A DNA stretch of 64,000 nucleotides from Acidobacteriota bacterium (GTDB lineage: Bacteria > Acidobacteriota > Thermoanaerobaculia > UBA5066 > Gp7-AA6): the NCBI GenBank assembly GCA_027307335.1, contig DAHUXD010000050.1, positions 536 through 64,535 on the forward strand. Reading direction: 5' to 3'. The translations under genes and the position numbers were made by a program. Numbering within the stretch: the first letter of the stretch is position 1; each line of letters begins with the position of its first letter. A model generated the notes under the pieces. That model worked only from the letters and a program-made list of their open reading frames with translations. It ran no database searches and was not told where the DNA came from. Positions 25,513 to 53,417 of this stretch are shown here, one piece after another.

Positions 25513-26886
25513 ATGCGCGCTCGCGAGACTCTCGGAATGCTTCTCTTCGGGGCCGCGGCCTCCATGGCCGCGCAGCCGGCGGGTTGGGAGAGCTTCGGCC
25601 CTCCCCTGTACCAGATCAGCGACGTCGCGACCGGTTCGGACGAGACGACCGTCTACGCCTCCGGCGCCAACACGGCGGCCGGGCAGAGCGGCATCTTCGA
25701 GAGCACCGACGCGGGCAGCCTCTGGACCGGCCTCGTCGCGGCGCCGCTCGGCGAAGCGTACGGGGATCTGCTCGTCGATCCCGGCAACTCTCAGACGATC
25801 TATACGGGGACCCTCGGCAGCGACCACAGGACGCGCCTGTACCGCTCTCTCGACGGCGGAGTCACGTGGTTCCTCGGCCAGACGCTGGGCGCGCTCTGCG
25901 TGCCCTCGTTCGCGCCGGGCGCCTCGACCGGAACCGCGCTCGTCGCGTGCGGGACCGGCCTCTGGAAGACGGCCGACTCGGGCCAGAGCTGGCAGGCGCT
26001 GTCGCCGCCGTTCACGCAGACGACGCGGCTCGCGCCCGGAGCCGCCGGAGCGCTGTGGGCCTACGGGCCGACCACGCTCTTCCGCTCGAACGACGGCGGG
26101 ACGACGTGGCAGGCCGCCGGCACCCCACCTCCCTGCGCGGGCGTCAACGCGCTCGCCGCCGACCCCACGCAGCCGAACGTCCTGATCGCGGGAACCGGGG
26201 TCGTCGGCGGATCGGGCCTGGTCTGCGGCTCGATCTATCGGAGCACGGACGGGGGCGCGACGTGGACCGGAACCACCGGTGCCACCGGCGCCTTCATCAC
26301 GGACATCATCGTGAACGCCGTCGACCCGACGCGCATGTACGCGAGCGCCGGCAACTTCCCGGGGATCCTGCCGCAGGGCGGTGTCTTCGCGAGCCTCGAC
26401 GGCGGCGCGACCTGGACGAACATGGCGCTCCCGGCGAACTCCGCCTCGCGACTCGCGCTCTCGCCGAGCGGCCAGATTCTCTACGCGGCGACTCCCGTCG
26501 GCGTGTACGAGATCGGCGTCACGAGCGGCACCCCCACGTGCACGCCGAACGACTTCACCCTGTGCCTCGACGGCGTGCGATATCGCGTGCAGGCGACATG
26601 GACCCGGCCCGACCAGACGAACGGCTCCGGCCATGCGATGGGGCTGACGAACGACACCGGCTACTTCTGGTTCTTCGATCCGACCAACGTCGAGGTCATC
26701 GTCAAGGTGCTCGAGGGCTGCGGTACGAACTCGCATCGCTGGGTCTTCGCCAGCGGCCTCACCAACGTCTTCGTCAATCTCACCGTCACGGACATCCTGA
26801 CCAACGAGGTGAAGACGTATACGAACGCGCAGGGAACGGCGTTCGTCCCCGTCCAGGACACGCACGCGTTCGCGTGCAGCCCCTAG
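25513..26886 (+). CDS. Secreted BNR-repeat (YCF48/sialidase-like) beta-propeller protein with conserved C-terminal domain
   Basis: Signal peptide, several SxDGGxTW repeats, and C-terminal LCL..RYRV..W / GYFWFFDPTNVEVIVKVLEGC..N..WVFASGLTNV. Confidence 0.8.
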   Translation: MRARETLGMLLFGAAASMAAQPAGWESFGPPLYQISDVATGSDETTVYASGANTAAGQSGIFESTDAGSLWTGLVAAPLGEAYGDLLVDPGNSQTIYTGTLGSDHRTRLYRSLDGGVTWFLGQTLGALCVPSFAPGASTGTALVACGTGLWKTADSGQSWQALSPPFTQTTRLAPGAAGALWAYGPTTLFRSNDGGTTWQAAGTPPPCAGVNALAADPTQPNVLIAGTGVVGGSGLVCGSIYRSTDGGATWTGTTGATGAFITDIIVNAVDPTRMYASAGNFPGILPQGGVFASLDGGATWTNMALPANSASRLALSPSGQILYAATPVGVYEIGVTSGTPTCTPNDFTLCLDGVRYRVQATWTRPDQTNGSGHAMGLTNDTGYFWFFDPTNVEVIVKVLEGCGTNSHRWVFASGLTNVFVNLTVTDILTNEVKTYTNAQGTAFVPVQDTHAFACSP

Positions 26887-26898
26887 ACCTTCAGAGGT

Positions 26899-26990
26899 TG
26901 GCGGAGAGGACGGAATAGCCGCCGGCAGCGCCGGCGGGGCCGACGGCCGCGGGTCGGCCGGTGGTCGGCTCGAACCCGCGCCGGGTGCTC
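26899..26990 (-). repeat. Inverted copy of the tRNA-Ser(GCT) 3' end with a hairpin insertion in the T-loop
   Basis: 26899-26913 is the exact reverse complement of tRNA positions 27139-27153. After AAT and a 53-nt double-hairpin insert, TCGAACCCG (26970-26978) resumes the match. Confidence 0.75.
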
Positions 26991-27059
26991 GGCTCGATCT
27001 GAAACCCTCAATTCCTTCCGGGCGGACAATCCACTAACATCGTCCCCCTGACCACTCGC

Positions 27060-27153
27060 GGAGAGGTGGGTGAGTGGCTGAAACCAGCGGTTTGCTAAAC
27101 CGCCGTAGGGGCCTAAACCTCTACCACGGGTTCGAATCCCGTCCTCTCCGCCA
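27060..27153 (+). tRNA. tRNA-Ser (anticodon GCT)
   Basis: GGAGAGG acceptor stem, GCGGT-TTGCTAA-ACCGC anticodon arm, long variable arm, GGTTCGAATCC and CCTCTCCGCCA. Confidence 0.96.
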
Positions 27154-27211
27154 CTATCCTTCCTCCGCGCGCGTCGTCCGCGTCAGCCGGCGTCCGTCTT
27201 GCGCCGGAAGC

Positions 27212-27460
27212 TCACAGCCGGCTTCCCGGAACGGACTCGGCAGGGGAAACGGATCGAGGACCCGCGAGCTCGCAAAGATCGACGGGATCGACGACCGGGC
27301 CCGTATCGAGCATGGCGCAATCCTCGACGTGGATGCATCGCCGCACGCCGTTGGCGAAACGCTCGAGAGCACCGAGTCGGCGGCAGCGAGGGCAGTGGAT
27401 GATCGTTCGCCCTCCGGAAACGACCGTTCCGACGACGAGTTGGGTGAAGTCGTTCTTCAT
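27212..27460 (-). CDS. Small Cys-rich hypothetical protein
   Basis: MKNDFTQLVVG...HCPRC...RCIH...C...DLC, starting about 20 nt downstream of the SLH-protein stop on the same strand. Confidence 0.5.
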   Translation of the reverse strand: MKNDFTQLVVGTVVSGGRTIIHCPRCRRLGALERFANGVRRCIHVEDCAMLDTGPVVDPVDLCELAGPRSVSPAESVPGSRL

Positions 27461-27482
27461 GGGCATGATCCCTGGATCCGGG

Positions 27483-30473
27483 TCACAGGTGGAACGTCTT
27501 CGTGAGGAACACGGCCATCTGACCGCGCGTGTTCGGGTTCGCGGGGCAGTAGTCGCCGCCGCCGCACCCGCTCGTGATTCCCTCGGCCGCGAGCTGCTCG
27601 ATCCAGTCGGCGAAGAGGCTCGGGCACGAGACGTCGCCGAAGACGCCGGTGCACGACGGCGGCGCATAAGCCGAGCCGTGCTCCGCCTTGAGAAGAAACA
27701 CCGCCATCTGCGCCCGCGTCACCGGGGTCGACGGACAGTAGTTGCGGCCGCCGCAGCCGGCCGTGATGCCTTCGCGCGCCAGCTGCTCGATCCAGTCGGC
27801 AAAGAGGCTCGGGCATGGCACGTCCGCGAAGAAGCCGTTGCAGTGAGGTGGCGCATAGCCGGAGCCGTGCTCGGCCTTCAGCAGGAAGGCCGCCATCTGC
27901 GCGCGGGTGACCGCATCGCCTCCGCAGTAGCTCCCATTGCCGCAGCCGGCGGTGATGCCGGCGCGGAAGATCTTTTCCACGAAGTCGTGAAAGGGATCGA
28001 GCTGCGGCACGTCCAGGAAGTCGGCGAAGAAGGCTTTGGGTCGAGTCGCCGTTGCGAGACTCGACCCTGTATTCGCAACCGAGACGTCGTTCAGAGTCCC
28101 TGGAGATAGGGCCGGGGTGAACAGGTACAGAAACGTCGAGTCGGAAACTGTCACATCGGTTCCCGCCGTGACGCCGACGGTCACGATGGCACCAGAAGAA
28201 AAGCCCCCGCCGAGAACGACGAGGGCCGCGCCGCCCGAGGCGGCGCCCGATGAGGGCGATACCTCATTGACGGCCAGGGGCCTGTCCGCGAAGCGGATGA
28301 TCCCTCCCCCACCGAGCGGGCTTGCTCCGCTTCCATAGATGAACCCGTCGGCCGCTTGCATGAATCCGCTGGCATAAGCGCCCGGCAAACTCGTCACGTT
28401 GCCGTCGTAGTCCATCGTGAAGACTGTCCCGGTGGGACCTGAGAACGTGCCATAGAACTTGCCCTGCGAGCCCGCCCAGAAAAGCTCCGTCGGGTTGGCG
28501 CCATCAACGCCGTTGAAGGCGTGCTTGGTGTCGAGAGCGTAGCTGTCAGGAATGGTCTTGAAAGCGGTTCCCGGTCCGGGATCGCCGCCATAGTAGGTGG
28601 TGCCCCACAGATCTCCATCCACGTACGTCAGACCGGCCATGGGAGTGGCACCGTCAAGTCCGCCGAAGCTGTACTGCGGCCAGACGTCACCGTCCATGCT
28701 CAAGCGGAAGACGATCCCCATTCCATACGCGCCGCCCTGCGAGGTGGTCCCGTAGAACTTTTCGTTGGCTGCGATGAGCGGACCGTTTGGAGAGGCTCCG
28801 TCCATCTCCGGGTTGAAGCTGGCGATCGTTGCGAAATTCCCCGACGAGTCCATTCTGAAAGCCGTGCCCCACTGAGCGCTTCCGAGGCCGCCCGGAGTGA
28901 CTCCGTAGAACTTGCCGTCTGAGGCCTGGATCAGCCCGGAAGAACTCCCACCATCGTTGCCGTCGAAGCTGTGTAGGGTCGTCACGGCACCGTCGTACCC
29001 GATCCTGTAGATGGTGCCCCACCCGCCCGCTCCTCCAGATTCCGTCGTGCCATAGAGCTTTCCGTCCGTAGCCTGAACGAGGGCAGCACGCGGATGCGTG
29101 CCGTCTGAGTCGCTGAAGGTGTGAAGCGATGTCACGACATCCAGGGAGTCCAGCCGGTAGATCGTGCCGAGGTCGTACGCGCCTCCGGTGTTCGTCGTGC
29201 CATACAAGCTACCGTCGGTGGCCTGCGTGAGTTTCCCCGGCTCGGCTCCGTCCGACCAGCCAAAACGATGCACCGTTGTGAAGCTACCGCCGATGTCGAC
29301 GCGAAAGACCGTTCCGGCGATCGAGGCAGTGTCGGGCCAGCCCCTGGTGGACGTGGTCGCGCCATAGAGGAGGCCGTCGTTATTCAGAACCATCGCGACC
29401 CTCGGACGGGCTCCGTCCTCTCCCGTGAAGGCGTGCAAGACGCTGACGTTGCCGGAGCCGTCCACTCTGTACACAGCTCCATATGGGCACGTCTCTGCGC
29501 CCGAACTGGTCGACCCGAAAAACGCTCCGTCGGAGCCCTCGACCAGACCAGCCACCGGAAGGTAACCCTCCGTGGACGGGTCGAATTGGTGGAGCACGGC
29601 TGCATCGCCGGCGAGTTCAATCCGCACAATCGTGCTTGGCCCGGCTCCGTTATCGGCGGCTTTGGTCGTTCCGAGCAGGGCCCCCGAACCAGTCTGAATC
29701 AAAGAGGAGACAGACGTGTTGATTCCGAACGAGTGAAGGACCGCAAAGTCACCGGTCGAGGTGATACGGAATACCGTCCCGCCAACGCTCGTCGTGCCGT
29801 AGAGGTTGCCATCGGCGCCTTCCCGGAGTTCCGTGAGCGGATGGGCTCCGTCTACCCACGTCGAAAAGCTGTGAAGAATCGTCAGCGTTCCATTGGTGCT
29901 GACTCGAAATACCGTTCCGTCGCCATTCGTGCCGCCCGACTCCGCCGTCCCATACAGGTTCCCGTCCGCCGCTTCGATGAGAGCCGCGCGCGGGTTCTTC
30001 CCGTTCACGCCGTCGAAGCTGTAGAGCCTCGTCACCGTGCCGCCCGCGTCCATGCGAAACACGATTCCCTGGTTGTTCCCACCGCCCCTGGTCGTCGTGC
30101 CATAGAAACTCCCGTCGGTGCCACGAACCAGTCCCGCTGCCGGATTCGCACCATCGGCGTAGGCGAAGCTGTGCAGCGTCGTCAGGTTTCCAGCGGAATC
30201 CATGCGGAAAATCGTGCCGACCCCGCTCGAGCCGCCCCAGTACGTCGTGCCGTAGAAGTAGCCGTCGGGCGCCAGGAGCAGGCTGCTGACGCTCGGCGCG
30301 TCGCCTGAGGCTGGCTGGCCCGAGGCCCGAAACGCGTGAACGATCTCGTACGTCGTCGGCGCCTGCGCCATCGCCGCGACGGCGCCGAACCAACCCACCA
30401 GGACAGCGATTAGAAATTCCCGACGAAACGCTCGGGCCTCCCGGGGAGAGAGACCGGTCGTGGAAGTTTTCAT
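27483..30473 (-). CDS. Surface protein with GloVer (Gloeobacter/Verrucomicrobia) repeats, IPT/TIG domain and three SLH-like domains
   Basis: Signal peptide, about 14 repeats of 'LHSF..DGA.P...L....DG.LYGTT..GG....GTVFR', a VSPSSG...GG TIG domain, and three 'F.DV...GITAGC....YC....TRAQMA.FL' units. AGGAGG SD. Confidence 0.88.
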   Translation of the reverse strand: MKTSTTGLSPREARAFRREFLIAVLVGWFGAVAAMAQAPTTYEIVHAFRASGQPASGDAPSVSSLLLAPDGYFYGTTYWGGSSGVGTIFRMDSAGNLTTLHSFAYADGANPAAGLVRGTDGSFYGTTTRGGGNNQGIVFRMDAGGTVTRLYSFDGVNGKNPRAALIEAADGNLYGTAESGGTNGDGTVFRVSTNGTLTILHSFSTWVDGAHPLTELREGADGNLYGTTSVGGTVFRITSTGDFAVLHSFGINTSVSSLIQTGSGALLGTTKAADNGAGPSTIVRIELAGDAAVLHQFDPSTEGYLPVAGLVEGSDGAFFGSTSSGAETCPYGAVYRVDGSGNVSVLHAFTGEDGARPRVAMVLNNDGLLYGATTSTRGWPDTASIAGTVFRVDIGGSFTTVHRFGWSDGAEPGKLTQATDGSLYGTTNTGGAYDLGTIYRLDSLDVVTSLHTFSDSDGTHPRAALVQATDGKLYGTTESGGAGGWGTIYRIGYDGAVTTLHSFDGNDGGSSSGLIQASDGKFYGVTPGGLGSAQWGTAFRMDSSGNFATIASFNPEMDGASPNGPLIAANEKFYGTTSQGGAYGMGIVFRLSMDGDVWPQYSFGGLDGATPMAGLTYVDGDLWGTTYYGGDPGPGTAFKTIPDSYALDTKHAFNGVDGANPTELFWAGSQGKFYGTFSGPTGTVFTMDYDGNVTSLPGAYASGFMQAADGFIYGSGASPLGGGGIIRFADRPLAVNEVSPSSGAASGGAALVVLGGGFSSGAIVTVGVTAGTDVTVSDSTFLYLFTPALSPGTLNDVSVANTGSSLATATRPKAFFADFLDVPQLDPFHDFVEKIFRAGITAGCGNGSYCGGDAVTRAQMAAFLLKAEHGSGYAPPHCNGFFADVPCPSLFADWIEQLAREGITAGCGGRNYCPSTPVTRAQMAVFLLKAEHGSAYAPPSCTGVFGDVSCPSLFADWIEQLAAEGITSGCGGGDYCPANPNTRGQMAVFLTKTFHL

Positions 30474-43528: not shown

Positions 43529-43618
43529 TGGCGGAGGAGGAGGGATTCGAACCCCCGGTACCGTTCCCGGTACAGCGGTTTTCAAGACCGCCGCCTTAAA
43601 CCACTCGGCCACTCCTCC
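43529..43618 (-). tRNA. tRNA-Ser (anticodon TGA)
   Basis: Minus strand GGAGGAGTGGCCGAGTGGTTTAAGGCGGCGGTCTTGAAAACCGC...GGTTCGAATCCCTCCTCCTCCGCCA. Confidence 0.97.
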
Positions 43619-43768
43619 GAGCGTTCCAGTGTAGCGAACGCCGCCCACGTGAGCACGCCGCCGCCTGCCGGGGGTCCGCCTCGGTGGCGGACCCGTCGCC
43701 CTTGACACCTCCCCACACGCCGGGCCCTGGCACTGATAGCGTTCACAAACAGATCAAGGAGGACGGTC

Positions 43769-52831: not shown

Positions 52832-52900
52832 GGGGGGCCCAAGGGCCGCCCCACACGATTTCCGGACCTGGACCGTAGGGGCGGGGCTTGCCCCCGCCCC
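52832..52900. repeat. Pair of REP sequences upstream of RAYT
   Basis: 52875-52900 GTAGGGGCGGGGCTTGCCCCCGCCCC, plus a degenerate minus-strand copy at 52832-52856 (GTGTGGGGCGGCCCTTGGGCCCCCC). Confidence 0.8.
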
Positions 52901-52921: not shown

Positions 52922-53386
52922 GTGCTCCCTTCTCGGAAGCGAATTCGCCTTCACGACCACGCGTACCGCGAGTCGGGCCGCGCCTTCTCGGTCACCATCG
53001 CTGTCGCTGAGCGACGACGGATCTTCGAGGATCTCGGGTTCGGCCGAGAATGCGTCGAGCTTCTCCAGAAATGCTGTCGGGAAATGGATTTCCGGTGCCT
53101 CGCCTATTGCTTGATGCCAGACCACGTTCATCTGCTCGTCTGCGTCGGAGGCAAGAACTCGCTCACGGAGCTCGTGGGAGCTTGGAAGTCGCTGTGCGCG
53201 CTGGCGGCCCGTCAACGAGGTAAGCCCGCCGGTTTATGGCAACGGAGCTTCTTCGACCATGCCCTTCGCTCAGAGGAGAGCCTTCAGGCCGTCGCCGACT
53301 ACATCCTCGCCAACCCCGTTCGGGCCGGTCTGGTGACTCGACAGGCCGACTACCCCCTGTCCGGATCTTTCGAATACGTCCTTTAG
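52922..53386 (+). mobile_element. rayT: REP-associated tyrosine transposase (RAYT, HUH Y1 family)
   Basis: RKRIRL...Y, VT, LMPDHVHLL (HUH), WQRSFFDH and catalytic YILANPVRAGLV. Flanked by inverted GTAG-REPs. Confidence 0.92.
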
Positions 53387-53392
53387 TCGTGC

Positions 53393-53417
53393 GGGCGGCC
53401 ACGAGGGCCGCCCCTAC
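53393..53417 (-). repeat. REP downstream of RAYT
   Basis: Minus strand GTAGGGGCGGCCCTCGTGGCCGCCC. Confidence 0.85.

Follow-up and report, generated by a model that had tools for sequence, protein, structure and literature searches.

We analysed a 64,000-nt stretch of DNA (the window) from a Thermoanaerobaculia member of the Acidobacteriota (assembly GCA_027307335.1, contig DAHUXD010000050.1, positions 536 to 64,535 of the forward strand), in which an intact gene for tRNA-Ser(GCT) is preceded by an inverted partial copy of its own 3′ end. The T-loop of this partial copy, here called the relic, is split by one copy of a dispersed, structured, GC-rich repeat of ~58 nt that we named E. The assembly (4.37 Mb, 65 contigs, 70% G+C) is referred to as G000 or the own genome, and the window contig as C60. 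Among the 53 tRNA genes called by ARAGORN over the whole assembly, this is the only one with a GCT anticodon. The features of the locus, in window coordinates, are as follows.

26899-26916, minus strand: 3′ piece of the relic (T-loop positions 59-60, 3′ strand of the T-stem, 3′ strand of the acceptor stem, discriminator base and CCA), which is also the left arm of the inverted repeat; 17 of 18 nt complementary to 27136-27153.
26917-26969, minus strand: diverged copy of E inside the relic T-loop, between positions 58 and 59; covariance model R1, 43.4 bits and E-value 7.9e-07 over 26917-26971; nhmmer, 13.4 bits.
26970-26979, minus strand: 5′ piece of the relic (5′ strand of the T-stem and TTCGA of the T-loop); 9 of 9 nt complementary to 27127-27135.
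26979-26997, no strand assigned: partial second copy of the junction between T-loop and left end of E; direct repeat of 26955-26973 with 84% identity.
27012-27040, plus strand: putative tRNA promoter (TTCCTT, 17 nt, TAACAT), placed by inference only; the block around aatccactaacatc is kept upstream of the tRNA in most relatives.
27060-27153, plus strand: intact tRNA-Ser(GCT), called by ARAGORN and matched by the Rfam tRNA model with 58 bits.
27139-27153, plus strand: 3′ end of tRNA-Ser(GCT), the right arm of the exact 15-nt inverted repeat, from repeat and 15-mer scans.

The last 15 nt of the tRNA, CCA included, have their exact reverse complement at 26899-26913, and the arms can be extended to 18 nt with 17 positions paired. 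A scan for the 15-mer with up to one mismatch found it at two places in the window, the two arms themselves; the expectation from shuffled sequence was 0.03, and none of 100 shuffles had two matches. After a gap of 53 nt (26917-26969) the match resumes at 26970-26978. The tenth base of the 5′ piece is a transition that retains a G-T pair on the minus strand, and the T-stem of the relic pairs at 5/5 positions. Read on the minus strand, the relic consists of the T-stem 5′ strand, TTCGA, the insert, AT, the T-stem 3′ strand, the acceptor 3′ strand, the discriminator base and CCA, so that the insertion point lies exactly between T-loop positions 58 and 59 (TTCGA / insert / AT). GC hairpins form when the insert is folded; for 26887-26999 as single-stranded DNA, z was -2.5 on the plus strand and -3.7 on the minus strand. 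A preliminary description of this DNA had reported an inverted copy of the tRNA's own 3′ end, CCA included, and a match that resumes past a GC-hairpin insert in the T-loop. Both observations were confirmed.

The 5′ half of the tRNA is missing from the relic, and there is no complete cloverleaf. ARAGORN called no minus-strand tRNA gene at the relic, Rfam gave no match over 26899-26980 at E-values up to 10, and no further tRNA fragments were found elsewhere in the window. The relic begins 12 nt past the stop codon of the upstream gene, and 145 bp separate the repeat from the tRNA. A consensus scan found no sigma-70-like promoter site.

A blastn search of the intergenic region against the own genome returned a 19-nt exact match upstream of tRNA-Arg(TCT) on contig C16. 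The own genome has eight copies of E, a count given by both the nhmmer profile and covariance model R1. Across the genus, E was matched in 43 of 44 genomes with 1-113 copies per genome. The exact T-loop/E junction pattern was present in 14 stretches of a one-genome-per-species collection, all from Thermoanaerobaculia or from metagenome-assembled genomes (MAGs) of Acidobacteriota. E consists of a conserved 5′ module, a GTAGG tag and, directly after the tag, an 8-bp hairpin. Pairing in this hairpin reaches 95.5% over 37 copies, and both sides are changed in 29 cells; no shuffle out of 500 scored as high. A second short helix shows compensatory changes in 3 of 37 copies. The window copy is the most diverged in the own genome (43.4 bits with R1, versus ~80-88 bits for typical copies); it reads GTCGG where the family has GTAGG, and has therefore lost the GTAG. 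Elsewhere in the window, a degenerate E-like stretch at 43636-43694 on the minus strand (R1 20 bits, E-value 0.038) lies directly upstream of tRNA-Ser(TGA) (43529-43618, minus strand), an arrangement that recalls the E-then-promoter layout of 5′ arrays in relatives.

The insert belongs to a repeat that recurs as an occupant of tRNA loops, which fits the possible tRNA-targeting element of the preliminary description. Among relatives, E sits in the T-loops of partial copies of tRNA-Ser(GCT), tRNA-Ser(GGA) and tRNA-Arg(TCT), exactly between A58 and A59. In 5′ partial copies of tRNA-Ser(GGA) and tRNA-Ser(CGA), which comprise the promoter and positions 1-36, E is found in the anticodon loop; some of these copies form tandem arrays of up to four units. 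One nearly full-length tRNA-Arg copy, in G022, bears E. Many further copies in relatives are at sites without a tRNA. The six non-tRNA copies of the own genome comprise two in the loops of repetitive extragenic palindromic (REP) hairpins, three in another palindrome and one beside a gene end. What stays constant at the junction is ...(C/G)GA / E / A.... The flanks of E can form a perfect stem of at least 5 bp in 30 of 46 copies, versus a mean of 14 of 46 in shuffled pairings; tRNA loci are over-represented in this copy set owing to how it was gathered.

The left flank of E recurs on its right in 16 of 58 copies, all of them in tRNA loci except one copy on C7 of the own genome. Because the duplication is confined to tRNA loci bar that copy, we read it as survivorship. 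An insertion into the sole copy of an essential tRNA presumably could not persist, so that E would be seen only beside a second, intact copy. A long target-site duplication as a property of E itself was rejected on the same distribution. The exceptional copy (C7:186400-186650, locus L097) has an enlarged hairpin and lies between two copies of the same 27-nt end of an SLH-type gene.

Tandem arrays of a partial tRNA copy joined to E were found at three loci: L021 in G018 (four units, period ~151), L022 in G008 (three units, ~122) and L018 in G014 (two units, 106). At L021 (G018:C2:1342600-1346400), the four ~151-nt units lie upstream of tRNA-Ser(GGA), each made up of a promoter, positions 1-36 of the tRNA and an E copy in the anticodon loop; a single E-split 3′ fragment follows downstream of that tRNA. 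At L082 and L085, both from Thermoanaerobaculia MAG records, the trailers between tRNA-Ser(GGA) and the E-split fragment contain T-arm halves in alternating orientation, which make short palindromes with TTCGAA at the centre. At L007, L016, L019 and L020 (in G009, G007, G016 and G024, respectively), partial 5′ copies of tRNA-Ser(GCT) lie upstream of the intact gene. A different GC-rich insert with two hairpins interrupts the D-loop of those copies; L019 shows a single one, and L020 shows one and, where the stretch read ends, part of another.

Interrupted copies at other tRNA genes had been put forward as a check. A scan of all 53 tRNAs of the own genome for copies of the last 14 nt within 1.5 kb gave one more, so that two inverted, E-split cases (Ser-GCT and Arg-TCT) stand beside two ordinary direct repeats. 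The latter both lack E. At C7:145853-146060, a decayed partial copy follows tRNA-Glu(CTC), and its variable region and T-loop contain insertions; at C28:54100-54560, tRNA-Ala(GGC) has a clean direct repeat of 28 nt behind it, at +236.

The usual layout of the E-split T-loop units differs from that of the window. Of 29 units, 20 were direct and downstream of the tRNA, five inverted and upstream, and one direct and upstream; three had no tRNA on the stretch. The direct downstream units lie 9-285 nt from the tRNA, the first of them at 9-46 nt. The five inverted upstream cases are the window locus, the own tRNA-Arg locus, Ser-GCT in G006, Ser-GGA in G005 and Ser-GGA at L081; both E-split fragments of the own genome thus have this layout.

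The genes flanking the window locus are kept in most relatives, a BNR/Sortilin-Vps10-like gene on the left and an FG-GAP/ASPIC gene on the right. Between them the tRNA is on the plus strand in G008 and G006, and on the minus strand in G009, G023 and G007, with both flanks in unchanged relative orientation. G018 has both flanks and a minus-strand tRNA, with a short match to the right gene; for G003, G014 and G024 only the right flank could be matched, and for G022 only the left. In relatives with the other tRNA orientation, the fragment is missing or is a direct repeat. A tree of the right-flank gene (10 rows, one gene) requires at least two changes of orientation. Comparison of related genomes, another suggested check, bore out variation of tRNA orientation between the same two genes. 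Synteny shows that the ~150-bp cassette of promoter and tRNA alone has flipped between conserved flanks, at least twice at the window locus and likewise at the tRNA-Arg(TCT) locus; at both own loci the cassette is flipped relative to the usual layout.

In the window, ~6.9 kb (27154-~34000) separate the tRNA from the FG-GAP/ASPIC gene and encode an SLH/TIG protein of 996 aa, a membrane protein of 483 aa and an amine-oxidase-like protein. G008 and G006 have 41-75 bp in its place. No integrase was found within the segment and no tRNA repeat at its far end. Homology of the spacer with the tRNA trailers of relatives was considered as an inversion breakpoint and dropped; the similarity is better explained by the partial second T-loop/E junction copy at 26979-26997.

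The own tRNA-Arg(TCT) locus (L093, C16:9223-9435) has an inverted copy of the tRNA 3′ end at C16:9223-9310, with its T-loop split by E; 54 nt lie between this copy and the tRNA downstream of it. Three states of the locus occur between the conserved flanks A and B.

State 1, fragment on the minus strand, then tRNA on the minus strand: G017, G381 and G008 (the G008 contig begins inside the fragment array, without flank A).
State 2, tRNA on the plus strand, then fragments on the plus strand: G012.
State 3, fragment on the minus strand, then tRNA on the plus strand: the own genome.

In the own genome, the fragment has the T-stem GCTGG/CCAGC and the tRNA GCAGG/CCTGC. The intact tRNA-Arg has GGCGG/CCGCC in G008 and G017, and GCTGG/CCAGC in G012 and G381. 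T-stem alleles of Arg fragments are thus alleles of the intact tRNA in other genomes. Of 401 genomes of the class, 7 combine the allele of the own Arg fragment with a T-loop that is not interrupted; the ACTGG/CCAGT allele seen in the G008 fragments was found in this form in none. Among 23 parsed T-loop units, 16 stems paired at 5/5, five at 4/5 and one, which looks recombinant, at 3/5; the remaining unit was mis-parsed. That compensatory T-stem changes prove selection on the fragment was rejected, since the own allele is a real tRNA-Arg allele elsewhere. The fragment stems thus record true tRNA alleles, either old or from other lineages, and give no evidence of selection on the relic. Integration of a minicircle with crossover at 58/59 was also rejected; it predicts chimeric, mismatched T-stems, and the stems of tRNA and fragment are self-consistent alleles.

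We also searched for an enzyme that might move E or the cassette. The preliminary description had stated that the window holds no recombinase. This was correct for tyrosine and serine recombinases over the whole contig: the genome has six PF00589 and three PF00239 matches, none of them on C60 or near 9 kb of C16. It was incorrect in one respect, as the window encodes a 154-aa transposase of the Y1 type (52922-53386, plus strand; PF01797, E-value 9.5e-14) that resembles the REP-associated tyrosine transposases (RAYTs), 26 kb from the tRNA locus. This gene is flanked by GTAG-tagged REP hairpins of a non-E family at 52875-52900 and 53391-53417. Copies of E elsewhere in the own genome occupy loops of this same REP type. 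A second Y1_Tnp-like gene, a 350-aa open frame at C16:106300-108300, is flanked by GGGGTCAGGTCT-type repeats, not by E. These GGGGTCAGGTCT-type repeats resemble the GGGGWSAS-bearing inverted repeats of acidobacterial tyrosine transposases, as described in PMC3733652. Ordinary integrase genes lie beside other own tRNAs, on C38 and C57.

Y1_Tnp was matched in 21 of 31 genus genomes. A RAYT as mobiliser of E was rejected, given that none of 30 Y1_Tnp loci had E and that other repeats flank both RAYT-like genes of the own genome. Several traits of E (a 3′ hairpin, no terminal inverted repeats, insertion after (C/G)GA and before A, and no short target duplication seen) would be consistent with a palindrome-associated transposable element (PATE) or miniature inverted-repeat transposable element derived from the IS200/IS605 group, for which a related full-length insertion sequence (IS) would be expected; the scanned Y1_Tnp loci yielded no such parent with the ends of E. 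IS91-type elements reportedly use GTTC or CTTG as target motif (PMC13181058), and the GTTC junction in the T-loop and the CTTG junction in the Ser-GGA anticodon loop would suit such an insertion. An IS91-type origin was rejected; the other junctions do not fit, and Y2_Tnp (PF04986) was matched in only 1 of 31 genus genomes.

Taken together, we consider it fairly probable that the structure upstream of tRNA-Ser(GCT) is a relic tRNA fragment colonised by a REP-like miniature element, beside a tRNA cassette that flipped in the course of evolution, and not a demonstrated switch. The following sequence of events could have produced it. A redundant partial copy of tRNA-Ser(GCT), from T-arm to CCA, would have been present beside the intact gene. 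E, as a selfish REP-like element that may often land in the loops of DNA hairpins (tRNA T-arms, anticodon arms and REP palindromes), would then have inserted into the T-loop of this redundant copy, after (C/G)GA and before A. The E-split fragment would at first have been a direct repeat 9-46 nt downstream of the tRNA, as in the usual layout. Finally, the ~150-bp cassette of promoter and tRNA would have inverted in place, an inversion that synteny shows, and the old fragment would thereby have come to lie upstream and inverted. If the relic was left behind by inversion of the cassette, the 15-nt inverted repeat would therefore be a by-product, not a designed recombination site. The relic at the window locus probably does nothing, or at most serves as a REP-like hairpin at the 3′ end of the upstream mRNA.

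Several observations weigh against this scenario. The preference for loops is not universal, as several E copies lie within an arm of another repeat. The lethality of an E insertion into a working tRNA, on which the argument from survivorship depends, is an inferred one. The 28 tRNA-derived nt of the relic differ from the tRNA at just two positions, while E has diverged far from its family; this uneven drift hints at gene conversion or at constraint on the tRNA-like part. No enzyme could be linked to E, which was found within ~1.5 kb of none of 30 RAYT (Y1_Tnp) loci. At further short-RAYT loci, E lay downstream, on one side only, in two of five, in one of which (L100, G003) it was nested in a REP loop. 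Two genomes, G022 (95% complete) and G005 (94%), have E and no Y1_Tnp match. Finally, five independent-looking inverted upstream cases at three tRNAs are more than random rearrangement would suggest.

The most probable of the alternatives is that E or its mobilising enzyme drives the rearrangements, with loop insertion coupled to partial tRNA duplication, tandem amplification and cassette inversion. We regard this as possible and on balance unlikely. A possible route would be recombination at the palindromic TTCGAA core of the T-loop. If so driven, the tRNA loci would be hot spots of a single system, with the window as one of its outcomes. The tandem arrays in G018, G008 and G014, in which partial tRNA copies are joined to E, are consistent with such coupling. 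So is the bias in layout: 5 of the 26 T-loop units linked to a tRNA are inverted upstream copies, and there is no inverted downstream copy among them. The three states of the tRNA-Arg(TCT) locus, the shuffling of fragment and tRNA alleles among genomes at that locus, and the alternating T-arm halves in the trailers of L082 and L085 point in the same direction. There is a precedent in the integrase-driven inversions reported at tRNA genes of Thermococcales (PMC5495485). However, a duplicated flank was seen in just one E copy outside tRNA loci, and the duplication therefore looks like survivorship, not a property of insertion. The Y1_Tnp and Y2_Tnp scans of the genus genomes revealed no enzyme linked to E, the PF00589 and PF00239 genes are absent from both own loci, and the observed states could not be derived on paper from recombination at the T-loop core. 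That E is a hairpin-loop-homing miniature element of Thermoanaerobaculia whose activity makes the tRNA duplications, arrays and cassette flips, and hence a system that remodels tRNA loci, is accordingly a tentative proposal that we do not favour.

A role for the relic at the RNA level has less in its favour, and we think it improbable. Read-through from the BNR-like gene might pair with the 3′ end of the pre-tRNA, or the GC hairpins might stabilise or end the upstream mRNA in the manner of REPs. The relic starts close behind the stop codon of the upstream gene (12 nt), and REPs are mostly downstream of coding regions and plausibly transcribed, as reported in PMC3733652. A transcript of 26887-27160 is predicted to fold with a 15-bp long-range helix (-140.6 kcal/mol, z = -4.75). 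The normal pre-tRNA, however, would not contain the relic, since the conserved promoter-like block stands between relic and tRNA; no terminator-like site was found. In most relatives the fragment is absent or lies at the opposite side of the tRNA, so that no role tied to its position is conserved. Just 0.05 of the words were present in the RNA runs.

The preliminary description had proposed that recombination between the inverted cores flips the cassette and leaves the tRNA intact. In a working invertible cassette of this kind, exchange between the 15-nt arms would flip 26914-27138 within populations and redirect transcription of the tRNA. The exact inverted repeat does bracket the promoter and most of the tRNA, a flip worked out from the sequence would indeed keep the tRNA intact, and tRNA orientation does vary among relatives. 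That variation, however, does not match the two states that a flip at the 15-nt arms predicts. The predicted flipped state (left gene, minus-strand tRNA, promoter, plus-strand fragment) is absent from the relatives. G000 and G006, the only genomes with the inverted repeat at this locus, share one state though they are not sisters on the flank-gene tree, and relatives with the other orientation have no fragment or a direct repeat. The contig carries no invertase or integrase. Fifteen nucleotides are also short for RecA-dependent exchange.

A search of reads for both orientations, likewise suggested beforehand, could be made on assembled contigs only, and these gave a single orientation. A 3598-nt contig in each of two probable source runs covers 26500-27609 with 0 differences, and the Logan contigs of both runs have no strand-changing joint within 26899-27153; this test is weak because contigs drop rare variants. 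In a run from another study, a 151-nt record (26826-26976) shows left gene, fragment and E joined in the same way, at one difference. We judge a programmed switch unlikely, and a cassette that now flips through its 15-nt arms is highly improbable.

The pattern across the family is of note in itself: E occupies loops at four tRNAs, makes up tandem arrays and accompanies recurrent cassette flips. If E and the flips are linked, they would represent a new way for selfish DNA to reshape essential RNA genes and a source of structure-targeting DNA enzymology. If they are unlinked, the window locus is a well-documented relic that should not be annotated as a switch or as a pseudo-tRNA.

We compared the locus with known systems. 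Like invertons, it has inverted repeats that bracket a promoter-bearing segment; unlike them, it has no nearby recombinase gene, a single state in contigs, and arms that would be a fortuitous tRNA relic. tRNA genes are classic landing sites of integrating elements, whose known scars are direct repeats of the 3′ end. The relic resembles such attachment-site (att) scars of islands in being a duplicated tRNA 3′ end beside an intact gene, which in relatives is direct and downstream; fragments also bear tRNA alleles of other lineages, and integrases lie by other own tRNAs (C38 and C57). It differs in that the window repeat is inverted, upstream and 145 bp from the tRNA, whereas the first direct units of relatives are 9-46 nt away. 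In addition, no integrase is on the contig, the strain-specific ~6.9-kb segment on the other side of the tRNA has no far-end repeat, and the fragment is split exactly in the T-loop by E. A limited literature search, with subscription journals outside its coverage, found no account of a repeat that occupies one set T-loop position, or the anticodon loop, in partial copies of bacterial tRNA genes, and did not confirm the 'TRIP' elements of enterobacteria that the preliminary description had mentioned.

E resembles REPs and bacterial interspersed mosaic elements. It is short, GC-rich and intergenic, with >100 copies per genome, and forms an imperfect palindrome with compensatory changes. Its consensus hairpin has a GTAG tag beside it, as in the GTAG REPs described in PMC3733652, and the own genome encodes RAYT-like genes flanked by GTAG REPs. 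In contrast to REPs, E is ~58 nt long with a conserved 5′ module besides the hairpin, and copies of it lie within loops of a different REP type. E flanks none of 30 RAYT loci, unlike the REP of the REP/RAYT pairs called REPtrons, and the window copy lacks GTAG though the family fits the description of GTAG-tagged REPs. Insertion into hairpin-forming repeats has precedents: ISPpu9, ISPpu10, ISPa11 and others are reported to insert specifically into REPs (Tobes and Pareja 2006, PMC1525189), and PMC3119063 describes small mobile repeats of Haloquadratum that lack the length for a transposase gene, leave the target without a duplication and enter other elements. Like the REP-targeting ISs and these PATE-nested small repeats, E inserts at a fixed place in hairpin-forming repeats. 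It differs from them as a 58-nt non-coding element of Acidobacteriota whose targets include the T-loops and anticodon loops of partial tRNA copies.

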